Origin: a virus
Virus record (IMG/VR): IMGVR_UViG_3300046832_002460
Length of the DNA stretch: 15,960 nt
Direction: 5' to 3' (one strand)
Shown here: positions 1,044-2,219 of the stretch, one piece after another
Position numbering within the stretch: the stretch's first letter is position 1
How the letters are laid out: each line of letters opens with the position of its first letter
Made by a program: the position numbers and the translations under genes
The notes under the pieces: model-generated
Database searches by the model: none
Told to the model about the DNA's origin: nothing
What the model saw: the letters and a program-made list of their open reading frames with translations, nothing else

Positions 1044-1178
1044 GCCCGAATGGCGGAATCGGTAGACGCGACGGTCTCAGAGGCAAGGTATTTTGATACC
1101 CTTGTTGGGTCACTCCCAATAGCCTAAACAAAAACCGTTTGTTGAAAGACAATGCCAGTTCAAATCTGGCTTCGGGCA
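1044..1178 (+). tRNA. trnL: tRNA-Leu(CAG), type II with long variable arm, interrupted by a 51-nt intron between positions 37 and 38; CCA encoded at 1179-1181
   Basis: The acceptor GCCCGAA (1044-1050) pairs with TTCGGGC (1171-1177). The D-arm TGGCGGAATCGGTAGACGC is Leu-like. The anticodon stem ACGGT (1071-75) has the loop CT-CAG-A, and the 3' half ACCGT sits at 1134-1138 after a 51-nt insert. The variable arm is TTGT-tgaaag-ACAA and the T-arm is GCCAG-TTCAAAT-CTGGC. Confidence 0.7.
1082..1132 (+). other. 51-nt intron in tRNA-Leu(CAG) at canonical 37/38; Y-shaped fold (closing helix A37GGC/GCCT, hairpin CAAGGTAT-tttg-ATACcCTTG, hairpin TTGGG-tcact-CCCAA, A-rich 7-nt tail)
   Basis: The intron is delimited by the two halves of the anticodon stem. 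It is too short for a group I or group II intron. Confidence 0.55.
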
Positions 1179-1193
1179 CCAAAAATATACCAC

Positions 1194-1265
1194 GGGGGTG
1201 TAGTGTAATGGTTAGCACAAAAGATTTTGAATCTTTTAGTCCTCGTTCAAATCGAGGCACCCCTT
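1194..1265 (+). tRNA. trnQ: tRNA-Gln(UUG), intron-less; CCA encoded at 1266-1268
   Basis: The acceptor GGGGGTG pairs with CACCCCT, with a G1-U72 wobble. The D-arm is GTGT-AATGGTTAG-GCAC. The anticodon stem AAAGA/TCTTT has the loop TT-TTG-AA. The T-arm is CCTCG-TTCAAAT-CGAGG. Confidence 0.75.
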
Positions 1266-1295
1266 CCAATTCTTTGCAGTATTATGTTACTGTGA

Positions 1296-1970
1296 TCATT
1301 CATACAACTTCCGCAGGTCTCTTACTTTGTATGTTTCGCGAACATACTTGATGTAGACTTGTATGTCTATCTTATCCACTACCATAACATTGGGACATTG
1401 ATCCTTTTTGGCTTGAGCTCTCTTGCTCATAAATCCCTTGATTTCAATTTCCACACCTTCCACTACAAAATCAGGACGATATTTGTGTTTTTTGTTCTTG
1501 TAGGTGTAATCATACACAGAAGTTGATCTAGCAATCTCAATATTATGATCCAAATGCCAAATCACAAAGGCTAGTTCATATGTACTATCACAATGAAATC
1601 CTTTGTATTTGCCCTTGTGTCCTCCTCCATGTTTTTCTTGTTTGAGTGCATTTTCTGTTGCTCTTTGTTTGAAACAGATTCTCGAACAGGTAACTCTAGC
1701 TGCCGAGAATGATTTAGAACAAATGGGGCAAATCTTAATTATATCTTTTTTAGATCCAAATTTTTTTCCACGGTTGGGAGATGGCAATCCTTTATTGTGG
1801 CTAGGTCTTCCTTTCAATTTTGATTTAATTTTGTCTTTTACTTCTTGTGAATGTATTCTCGCATTGGCGCATTTTCTGCTACAGAATTTCTTGGCACCAT
1901 ATTTGGAATAGGGATCAAAACTATTGCCACACTTGGGGCAGATAGAATAAATATCAGTTACGCTGGACAT
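1296..1970 (-). CDS. Putative homing endonuclease: tandem Cys4 zinc ribbons plus a C-terminal PD-(D/E)XK (Vsr/DUF559-like) nuclease domain
   Basis: There are two repeats of CPxCxxSF...FCSRxC. The C-terminal GFHCDSTYELAFVIWHLDHN...HKYRPDFVVEGVEIEIKG matches the E...PD...E.K nuclease core. The RBS is AAAGGAAG 4-5 nt before ATG at 1970. The gene lies between tRNA genes. Confidence 0.6.
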   Translation of the reverse strand: MSSVTDIYSICPKCGNSFDPYSKYGAKKFCSRKCANARIHSQEVKDKIKSKLKGRPSHNKGLPSPNRGKKFGSKKDIIKICPICSKSFSAARVTCSRICFKQRATENALKQEKHGGGHKGKYKGFHCDSTYELAFVIWHLDHNIEIARSTSVYDYTYKNKKHKYRPDFVVEGVEIEIKGFMSKRAQAKKDQCPNVMVVDKIDIQVYIKYVRETYKVRDLRKLYE

Positions 1971-2037
1971 GATCTTCCTTTCTTGTCTAGAGCGGATGGA
2001 TGTTGGCGCATCGTGATCCGTACCTATATTTATACAG

Positions 2038-2066
2038 TTGACTAAACTATGATACTATATTACTAT
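2038..2066 (+). promoter_or_regulatory. promoter TTGACT-N17-TACTAT for tRNA-Leu(UAG)
   Basis: TTGACT at 2038-2043, a 17-nt spacer, TACTAT at 2061-2066. The tRNA starts 16 nt downstream. Confidence 0.5.
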
Positions 2067-2082
2067 GAAGATAGTAGAGTTT

Positions 2083-2219
2083 GCCCCCGTGTCGGAATCG
2101 GTAGACGACGCGGACTTAGGGACAAGAGCAACAGGTGCTCATATCAGTTCAATCCTGATAGTCCAACAGAAATCCGCTGGCCTGGAAAGGCTGTGCCCGT
2201 TCAAATCGGGCCGGGGGCA
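2083..2219 (+). tRNA. trnL: tRNA-Leu(UAG), type II, with a 51-nt intron at 37/38; CCA encoded at 2220-2222
   Basis: The acceptor GCCCCCG pairs with CGGGGGC. The D-arm is TCGG-AATCGGTAG-ACGA. The anticodon stem GCGGA (2110-14) has the loop CT-TAG-G, and the 3' half TCCGC sits at 2173-77. There is a long variable arm. The T-arm is GCCCG-TTCAAAT-CGGGC. Confidence 0.7.
2121..2171 (+). other. 51-nt intron in tRNA-Leu(UAG); same architecture as the 1082-1132 intron (closing helix G37GAC/GTCC, hairpin GAGCA-acagg-TGCTC, hairpin TATCAG-ttcaatc-CTGATA, tail AACAGAA)
   Basis: The intron lies between the anticodon-stem halves. Its sequence is unrelated to the first intron, but its fold and length are conserved. 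Confidence 0.55.

Follow-up and report, generated by a model that had tools for sequence, protein, structure and literature searches.

Three transfer RNA (tRNA) genes in a stretch of virus DNA are interrupted in the anticodon loop by short inserts that may well be introns. The stretch, IMG/VR virus record IMGVR_UViG_3300046832_002460, is 15,960 nucleotides (nt) long and is referred to below as the window. On balance, the inserts are best read as introns that would be spliced out at ends defined by the insert itself, and as one family in the tRNA genes of large uncultured phages. The anatomy of the inserts, the rule that governs their ends, the insertion site, the spread over tRNAs and phages, and the existence of uninterrupted counterparts are directly visible in the DNA. 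The interrupted genes and their parts are listed here; P1 is the helix that closes an insert, and P2 and P3 are the hairpins inside it.

964-992 (+): sigma-70-like promoter of the first interrupted tRNA-Leu, TTGACA-17-TATATT, 11 of 12 consensus matches
1044-1181 (+): class II tRNA-Leu(CAA), interrupted, with encoded CCA (Rfam tRNA model, ARAGORN -i)
1044-1079 (+): its 5' exon, with loop part CUCA at 1076-1079
1080-1130 (+): insert type A, 51 nt (parse checked against the sequence; minimum free energy (MFE) fold): G1080; P1 5' strand AGGC 1081-1084; P2 hairpin 1085-1104; P3 1105-1119, UUGGG-UCACU-CCCAA; UA; P1 3' strand GCCU 1122-1125; tail AAACA 1126-1130
1131-1181 (+): its 3' exon, with loop part AAA at 1131-1133
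1194-1268 (+): tRNA-Gln(UUG), uninterrupted, predicted co-transcribed neighbor of the first tRNA-Leu (ARAGORN; Rfam 66.5 bits)
2038-2066 (+): sigma-70-like promoter of the second interrupted tRNA-Leu, TTGACT-17-TACTAT, 9 of 12 consensus matches
2083-2222 (+): class II tRNA-Leu(UAA), interrupted, with encoded CCA (ARAGORN -i, MFE fold)
2083-2118 (+): its 5' exon, with loop part CUUA at 2115-2118
2119-2169 (+): insert type B, 51 nt (parse checked against the sequence): G2119; P1 5' strand GGAC 2120-2123; P2 2124-2142, with GG ending the loop; P3 2143-2159, AUCAG-UUCAAUC-CUGAU (T-arm-like); A2160; P1 3' strand GUCC 2161-2164; tail AACAG 2165-2169
2170-2222 (+): its 3' exon, with loop part AAA at 2170-2172
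11363-11391 (+): sigma-70-like promoter of the third interrupted tRNA, 10 of 12 consensus matches
11407-11531 (+): third interrupted tRNA, with encoded CCA (ARAGORN -i)
11442-11489 (+): its insert, 48 nt: G; P1 GGGGAU/AUCCCC; D-arm-like GUA-GGU-UAC; T-arm-like UGAGG-UUCAACU-CCUCA; tail AAACU

The two tRNA-Leu genes are complete apart from their inserts. A preliminary description of this DNA, made from the sequence alone, had reported a 51-nt insert in the anticodon loop of each gene and an encoded CCA, and program searches confirm this. Every stem of both cloverleaves is intact. When introns are allowed (option -i, local run), ARAGORN reports the two genes as Leu(caa) and Leu(taa), each with an intron of 51 nt, and it also finds the third gene at 11407-11531. 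The Rfam tRNA model scores 44.8 bits on the first tRNA-Leu, where it places 53 inserted nt in the anticodon loop, and it gives no match to the second even at E<=10. In its default bacterial mode ARAGORN misses both genes and calls only tRNA-Gln(UUG) in that region. Exact copies of this region occur in many freshwater metagenomes. Over 10 contigs both tRNA-Leu genes are unchanged, save for one base in one contig and a replacement of the first gene in contig L006, and the second gene is 100% identical in 10 contigs of other samples.

Type A and type B inserts are unrelated in sequence and fold alike, as had been noticed earlier. The MFE fold of each has a 4-base-pair (bp) closing helix and two hairpins, and column-matched shuffles of the inserts contain both helices in just 5 of 100,000 cases. 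The MFE folds of the full precursors combine the cloverleaf with a three-way junction in the anticodon loop, formed by P1 and the two hairpins, with z-scores of -3.3 for the first tRNA-Leu and -3.4 for the second. The earlier suggestion that a fold conserved over sequence points to a recognition element is thus upheld. Type B also has an alternative pairing of 5-6 bp between exon GGACU (nt 29-33) and insert AGUCC(A), at window 2112-2164, L136 3163-3217, and L143 3570-3624, which as modeled would unzip the anticodon stem. It was set aside because the other insert types lack it.

Comparison with uninterrupted relatives places the tRNA-Leu inserts between nt 35 and 36, inside the anticodon itself. 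The genes are read as Leu(CAA) and Leu(UAA) because uninterrupted syntenic relatives have the loops CUCAAAA and CUUAAAA. In L006 an intact tRNA-Leu with the loop CTCAAAA occupies the first slot, between an identical promoter and the same tRNA-Gln. A related lineage (L226-L230), found through a 65%-identical homologue of a 224-amino-acid (aa) open reading frame (ORF) in the window, keeps the order Leu(CAA)-Gln-ORF (opposite strand)-Leu(UAA) with both tRNA-Leu genes intact. A second type of cluster, composed of a class II Leu, Gln, and a class I Leu, is interrupted in L136, L199, and L143. Four IMG/VR contigs of 119-310 kb (L210-L213) have the same cluster with intact loops, CTCAAAA and CTTAAAA. 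The Leu-Gln-...-Leu order of the window is also found in L136, L143, L210, and L226. On a 440-kb contig (L231), the exons of an interrupted Leu(CAA) are identical to an intact Leu(UAA) paralogue 1 kb away. Outside leucine, L004 has an intact Arg(UCU), with the loop CUUCUAA, that the interrupted Arg gene in L225 matches. Uninterrupted versions of the same tRNAs thus exist in L006, L210-L213, and L226-L230, and the copies in the window keep their cloverleaves and promoters.

The site first proposed, exactly 37/38, and the anticodons CAG and UAG that follow from it do not hold. Under that reading, nt 36 would switch between G and C from phage to phage, simultaneously in the two tRNAs. One insert type would put a C at nt 37, and one Leu body would receive a Val anticodon. 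At 35/36 this variation is explained, because the variable bases become the first bases of the insert. ARAGORN -i and the paralogue with identical exons agree with 35/36. The strand described earlier as 7 A-rich nt before A38 consists of 5 insert nt and exon A36-A38. The junction of type B is unique in the window (CUUA, insert, AAA; 35/36), while that of type A is ambiguous, as a CA repeat allows it to slide 1-2 nt leftward. The spliced tRNA-Leu junctions are predicted to be GGTCTCA joined to AAAACCGT and GGACTTA joined to AAATCCGC. For the third tRNA, the end rule given below predicts the mature loop CUCAUAA with the anticodon CAU (Met or Ile2), and this gene is probably a CAU tRNA; ARAGORN reads it as Pro(CGG).

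The inserts of the window belong to a family with a common architecture. Pattern scans and neighborhood look-ups in freshwater and marine (Tara) phage contigs gave 14 distinct insert-bearing anticodon arms. Insert lengths range from 43 to 64 nt across the family; those of the window measure 51, 51, and 48 nt. Five arms come from Leu(CAA), four from Leu(UAA) (with bodies of both class I and class II), two from Arg(UCU), and one each from Asn(GUU), Ser(GCU), and Gln(UUG); the third tRNA of the window is a further host, and the family spans seven anticodon classes. The order of parts is a single nucleotide (S), the P1 5' strand (4-6 nt), P2, P3, a spacer of 0-2 nt, the P1 3' strand, and a 5-nt tail. 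The P2 region is variable or optional and is usually a small D-arm-like hairpin with GG or GGU in the loop. P3 resembles a T arm: it has a 4-5-bp stem and, in 13 of the 14 arms, a G-C-closed 7-nt loop of the form U(U/G)CRANN, such as UUCGAAU, UUCAAUC, UUCAACU, UUCGACC, or UGCAAAU. None of the 14 arms has a mismatch in P1, P3, or the anticodon stem, and the pair types differ; shuffled inserts form P1 and P3 in this way in 5 of 100,000 cases. Each parse was verified on the sequence itself.

The ends of the inserts follow a simple rule. Excision of S, the core, and 5 further nt leaves a canonical 7-nt loop in all cases. The restored loops are CUCAAAA, CUUAAAA, CUUCUAA, CUGUUAA, UUGCUAA, CUUUGAA, and CUCAUAA, and they match the uninterrupted counterparts wherever these are known, which is for Leu(CAA), Leu(UAA), and Arg(UCU). 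The two single strands, a and b, total 13 nt in all 14 arms, split as 3-5 plus 8-10. Relative to the host tRNA the junction lies at 33/34 in Gln, at 34/35 in one Leu and the CAU tRNA, and at 35/36 elsewhere. The ends of type B are uniquely fixed in two settings, at 35/36 (window, L136, and L143) and at 34/35 (L160), and they fall at the same place relative to the insert. The junction is therefore constant relative to the insert and shifts relative to the host tRNA, which argues for recognition defined by the insert. No base at the junctions is conserved: S can be G, C, or A, exons end in A, U, or C, and there are seven different tails (among them AAACA, AACAG, AAAAA, GCUCC, AAACU, and AAAUU). 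This free variation suggests that recognition is by structure.

As modeled, the insert is a miniature tRNA "top half" with the acceptor/T-arm geometry of a mature tRNA, in which position +1 lies opposite 72. S faces the first tail base, and in the Arg inserts the two pair as C-G. The stack formed by this pair of positions, P1, the spacer, and P3 has 11-12 layers in all 14 arms, as in tRNA, and is followed by a 4-nt 3' overhang. The Arg insert shows the resemblance part by part: its acceptor-like stem is 7 bp long, GC-AGGUA-GC forms a hairpin, CAAGG-UUCGAAU-CCUUG forms the T arm, and the tail has 4 nt. By analogy with a tRNA, the 5' end of the insert corresponds to the place where RNase P cuts, and the 3' end to the end of the mature 4-nt tail.

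Several observations suggest that the interrupted genes function and that the inserts act as RNA. The host genes look alive, since cloverleaves, CCA, promoters, and exact loop halves are all kept. They fill the slots of ordinary tRNAs in relatives, and several tRNAs per genome are affected. The inserts also show constraint at the RNA level, in the T-loop motif, the GG loops, and a compensatory change in P2 of the Arg insert (GC..GC to AU..AU).

A tentative and rather unlikely proposal for removal of the inserts is that RNase P, a 3' tRNA endonuclease, and an ATP-dependent RNA ligase act together as a third route of tRNA splicing. Transcripts would come from the genes' own promoters. Enzymes would recognize the insert by its tRNA-like elbow and its ends, taking their measure from it instead of from the host tRNA. 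RNase P would cut the 5' junction and the 3' tRNA-processing endonuclease the 3' junction, these being the most economical candidates, and the cuts would yield 3'-OH and 5'-P ends. An Rnl1-type RNA ligase, from phage or host, would then seal the exons in the anticodon loop. The textbook cut sites, 5' of P1 for RNase P and after position 73 for RNase Z, were rejected, because a 12-nt loop would remain; a 3' cut 4 nt beyond the helix is thus required.

Some points weigh against splicing or against these enzymes. Transcription, excision, ligation, and the enzymes involved are things we infer from DNA sequence. RNase Z usually cuts after position 73, not 76, and we know of no bacterial endonuclease that cuts 4 nt beyond an acceptor-like helix irrespective of sequence. 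A search by Pfam annotation for RNA ligase, RtcB, Pnkp, and splicing endonuclease (EndA-like) genes found none in about 100 kb of related phage DNA, which consists of genome fragments. The constant 13-nt total of the single strands is expected of any element with fixed ends, including an unspliced DNA insertion. P1 has just 4 bp in several types, both tRNA-Leu inserts of the window among them. The P3 exception is type A, the first insert of the window, where P3 (1105-1119) has the 5-nt loop UCACU; a T-loop-like loop in the second hairpin, previously ascribed to both inserts, is therefore found in the second (UUCAAUC, 7 nt) and not in the first. The inserts may be recent invaders, in which case intact exon loops could reflect youth and not selection. 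In the introns of Lak megaphages, about 30 nt separate the 5' junction from the tRNA-like part downstream (PMC6784885, Table S6), and RNase P therefore cannot set the 5' splice site there.

The distribution of the inserts suggests that they move. The type B insert is found, 88-94% identical, in the class I tRNA-Leu(UAA) of L136, L143, and L160, and the exons of hosts that share inserts at this level are 62-90% identical. Inserts would move between tRNA genes and between phages, probably aided by flanking free-standing homing endonucleases. Two candidate genes adjoin the interrupted tRNAs of the window.

1296-1970 (-): 224-aa protein with Zn-ribbons and a T7-endonuclease-I-like (PD-(D/E)xK) nuclease domain, between tRNA-Gln and the second tRNA-Leu
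10770-11342 (-): HNH homing-endonuclease gene, directly upstream of the third tRNA (PHROG 655, E = 1e-42; Pfam HNH)

The 224-aa protein matches the PHROG families "HNH endonuclease" and "endonuclease" and, weakly, Pfam Phage_endo_I. It has 62 uncharacterized homologues, and its sequence suggests that it is probably a free-standing homing endonuclease. Its homologue in L226-L230 lies at the same place, next to two uninterrupted tRNA-Leu genes. No protein is consistently linked to the inserts, as the ORFs that adjoin interrupted tRNAs are unrelated to one another.

The tRNA region as a whole is a mosaic of cassettes. Another HNH homing-endonuclease gene lies at window 3070-3816 (-), and some strains (L004 8080-9129 and L010 2549-3598) have instead an unrelated 280-aa ORF and an uninterrupted tRNA-Arg(UCU). 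The uninterrupted Leu(CAA) of L006 (1451-1533, -) is a chimera that took its 5' two-thirds from another tRNA-Leu. It shares an identical T arm and 3' acceptor strand with the window gene, and as a result its acceptor stem has A5·C68 and two G·U pairs. It looks like a recent product of recombination or gene conversion. An 89%-identical relative of the ORF upstream in the window lacks the entire tRNA island.

The strongest competing explanation, unlikely but to be taken seriously, is that the inserts are selfish elements that are not spliced and that disrupt accessory tRNA genes. The "splice rule" would then be the fixed ends of the element, and the transcript would be nonfunctional or would be cut by RNase P and RNase Z into a mini-tRNA-like RNA and two tRNA halves. 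Fixed ends would suffice for the 13-nt total, but terminal repeats, target duplications, and a transposase are all missing. Inserts are more alike than the exons of their hosts, suggesting recent invasion, and homing endonucleases are adjacent; yet all 14 host genes retain a perfect cloverleaf, a promoter, CCA, and exact canonical loop halves. Uninterrupted alleles and orthologues are present in the same populations, so the tRNAs may be dispensable, and no ligase was found. On the other hand, if the inserts are not spliced, then of the four tRNA genes found in the 16-kb window three would be dead, as would at least three in one 13-kb stretch of L231. The T-loop, the GG loop, and the compensatory changes also show selection on the transcript.

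An improbable alternative is that the tRNA body serves as a scaffold, with a chimeric RNA or an excised mini-tRNA as the product. Such an RNA could be a decoy for a host tRNA-binding enzyme or for a tRNA-targeting defense nuclease, or a leucine-accepting RNA that is held away from the ribosome. LeuRS ignores the anticodon, and tRNA scaffolds stabilize inserted RNAs in bacteria, which would favor this idea; the inserts are found in at least six tRNA identities, however, and not in Leu only. The mimicry of the elbow could bind any reader of a T-loop or elbow, and the insert sequence is better conserved than the exons. But the exon loop halves are always exactly canonical, which a scaffold does not need, and the interrupted genes hold the ordinary tRNA slots of relatives.

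It is very improbable that the inserts are tiny self-splicing or self-cleaving ribozymes, as the preliminary description had allowed. The three-way junction is compact and conserved and an A-rich tail lies close to the 3' junction, but the strands of the junction are merely 0-2 nt long, and no nucleotide at or beside either splice junction is conserved across insert types. Excision would be defined by the insert and no protein candidate was found, which could suit a ribozyme; however, Rfam gave no ribozyme match at E<=10 (hammerhead, twister, twister-sister, pistol, hatchet, HDV-like, and hairpin). An enzyme that measures from the elbow is favored over a small ribozyme because the only conserved motif, the T-loop, is a structural module and not a catalytic one, and because there is no Rfam ribozyme match.

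The inserts are also distinct from the group I intron in tRNA-Leu(UAA) of bacteria and plastids. The two have some features in common: they lie in the anticodon of the same tRNA (34/35 versus 35/36), they are mobile, and they occur in bacteria and phages. Group I introns are at least 200 nt long and have a P3-P9 catalytic core, a U at position -1, and a terminal G. In contrast, the Leu exons here end in A (others in C, U, or another base), and the inserts end in A, G, C, or U. No Rfam Intron_gpI match was found at E<=10 in window positions 1000-2300. At 51 nt the inserts are several-fold too short, and the earlier statement that they are far too small for group I or group II introns stands.

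Protein-spliced introns of the archaeal and eukaryal type, cut by an EndA-like enzyme at a bulge-helix-bulge (BHB), are hardly credible here: the inserts are short, lie in the anticodon loop, and have a 4-bp helix near the junction, but the site is 35/36 (33/34 to 35/36 across the family) and not 37/38, the 4-bp helix closes the insert itself, the arrangement of 3-nt bulge, 4-bp helix, and 3-nt bulge is not in the predicted folds, there is no EndA-like gene in the DNA at hand, and the promoters and encoded CCA are of bacterial type. In the MFE and centroid folds of six precursors the BHB is absent, and the anticodon stem, an asymmetric internal loop (5 + 8 nt), and P1 are found instead. Archaeal and eukaryal introns (BHB with EndA/Sen and RtcB/Trl1) depend on proteins, as is presumed for the inserts, and the archaeal ones are read by local structure. 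They differ from the inserts in that the context here is bacterial and the recognition element would be a tRNA-like elbow.

The closest precedent is found in other huge phages, although protein-spliced tRNA introns at 37/38 had been called unexpected in a T4-like phage. Lak megaphage tRNAs have "enigmatic", highly conserved introns, one of which "may encode a tRNA", and whose excision points are offset from the tRNAscan prediction; they have no Rfam hit (Devoto et al. 2019, PMC6784885). They are 79-114 nt long and consist of a 5' hairpin, an AU-rich linker, a tRNA-like element, and 2-3 nt (PMC6784885, Table S6). A 2026 survey described tRNA introns as common in recoded jumbo phages and noted that they "could encode another tRNA" (PMC13037316). 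Like the inserts described here, Lak introns are intervening sequences in the anticodon loop in huge uncultured phages, near-identical across genomes, with insert-free alleles. Both have an acceptor-like helix and a UUCGAAU-type T arm, both lack an Rfam hit, and in both the 37/38 position forced by tRNAscan is off. They differ in that one Lak intron holds a complete tRNA, whereas the inserts of the window are a bare core without an anticodon arm and with ends of 1 nt and 5 nt. In place of the 79-114 nt with a 5' hairpin and an AU-rich linker, the window inserts have 48-51 nt and start 1 nt before P1. Lak phages infect gut Prevotella, whereas the carriers here are aquatic phages. The window inserts are a compact variant of Lak-type introns and not the same form.

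Two other systems resemble parts of the proposed pathway. The mascRNA of MALAT1 and the t-elements of plant mitochondria are acceptor-T-arm minihelices within longer transcripts; they are eukaryotic and are excised by RNase P and RNase Z. A stack of about 12 bp with a T-loop is found here as well, with 11-12 layers in all 14 arms and a T-loop-like loop in 13. In contrast to the inserts, mascRNA and t-elements do not lie inside a tRNA, their flanks are not religated, and their sequences are unrelated. When scanned alone against Rfam, the Arg insert had mascRNA as its best match, below threshold (18.0 bits, E = 0.06; gathering 42.5), and this resemblance is one of analogy and not of membership. 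In phage T4, Pnkp and Rnl1 reseal tRNA-Lys that has been cut by PrrC. A phage enzyme can thus seal a nick in the anticodon loop, as in the proposed ligation; the T4 system, however, repairs damage and does not splice, and Pnkp and Rnl1 genes were not found in the fragments at hand.

The phages themselves are not obviously T4-like, as had been supposed. The sole long protein match in phage records is to ORFs of uncultured huge phages of 462-735 kb (LR756500 and LR756501), about 37% identical to a protein of 829-856 aa at window 7879-10449 (+). This protein has the shoulder and repeat domains of the major vault protein (Pfam E = 4e-19), which is odd in a phage. There are no tRNAs near the vault-like gene in the huge-phage records. 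A conserved block at window 4678-7919 (+), L210 2461-5295, and L225 7979-9997 encodes a saccharopine-dehydrogenase-like enzyme and a 200-aa PP-loop ATPase. In L210 the block also includes an R2K ATP-grasp protein, and in the window an ORF without a match (6348-7085). The best solved relatives of the PP-loop ATPase are tRNA(Ile)-lysidine synthases (TilS, E = 1e-11). In L225 a tRNA(CAU) directly follows the TilS-like gene, which fits the CAU reading of the third interrupted tRNA. L225, which has inserts of types B/C, also has an amber-suppressor-like tRNA(CUA) at 11882-11957 (+) and an 88-nt tRNA(CAU) with a long variable arm at 10034-10121 (+); these hint at stop-codon recoding, as in intron-bearing jumbo phages. 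A 155-aa ORF at window 12989-13456 (-) has a weak match to Pfam peptidyl-tRNA hydrolase 2 (PTH2), taken from the identical gene in L217-L219. In the DNA that borders the window on the left, L006 has many more phage tRNAs (6364-6515, 8273-8547, and 9581-9993, all -). Aberrant forms are among them, such as one with a GGAGCGUAACC T arm and a 94-nt "Tyr(ata)" called by ARAGORN.

Several searches gave only false leads. An IMG/VR scan for tRNA-Leu with a long gap, anchored on the D-loop, returned normal tRNAs with a chance T-loop downstream and nothing else. A GTDB scan for long-gap tRNA-Leu gave at least 120 matches, and those listed were false positives (normal tRNA-Leu, or half-tRNA duplicates at att sites beside a full gene). 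In L031, L055, L075, L084, L088, L099, L103, and L135 from GTDB, a truncated 5' half of tRNA-Leu lies immediately upstream of a full copy. Such halves are frequent in bacterial genomes and are att-site footprints of integrative elements, and ARAGORN -i miscalls them as intron-containing tRNAs. A loose script for the stem and P1 was far too permissive and was discarded. Searches of GenBank phages by blastn with insert types A, B, and C, the interrupted Arg, and the third tRNA gave only short alignments due to chance or alignments with the 3' end and T arm of the host tRNA. An apparent loss of the HNH gene and third tRNA in L218 and L219 was dropped, as alignment shows that these contigs begin after the tRNA. 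A full-text literature search found no description of this minimal intron form.

Introns in the tRNA genes of huge phages are a kind of element that has already been reported, without explanation; the earlier reports gave no structure, boundary rule, or mechanism. What is new here is the minimal form with a tRNA-like core (43-64 nt), the architecture and end rule shared by seven anticodon classes in several aquatic phage lineages, and the demonstration that the inserts split the anticodon itself. Standard annotation overlooks such genes, and eukaryote-mode tRNAscan or a naive reading gives CAG, UAG, and Pro instead of CAA, UAA, and probably CAU. Wrong anticodon calls of this kind skew inferences on the codon supply and recoding of phages. 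The compact form and rule-like ends make the mechanism of removal testable with substrates of 125-140 nt. If the inserts are spliced, bacteria or phages would have a tRNA-splicing route distinct from group I introns and from the BHB/EndA pathway. If the route by RNase P, 3' nuclease, and ligase is true, it would account for the "enigmatic" introns of huge phages in general, and the inserts would be mobile elements that pay for their insertion through tRNA mimicry.

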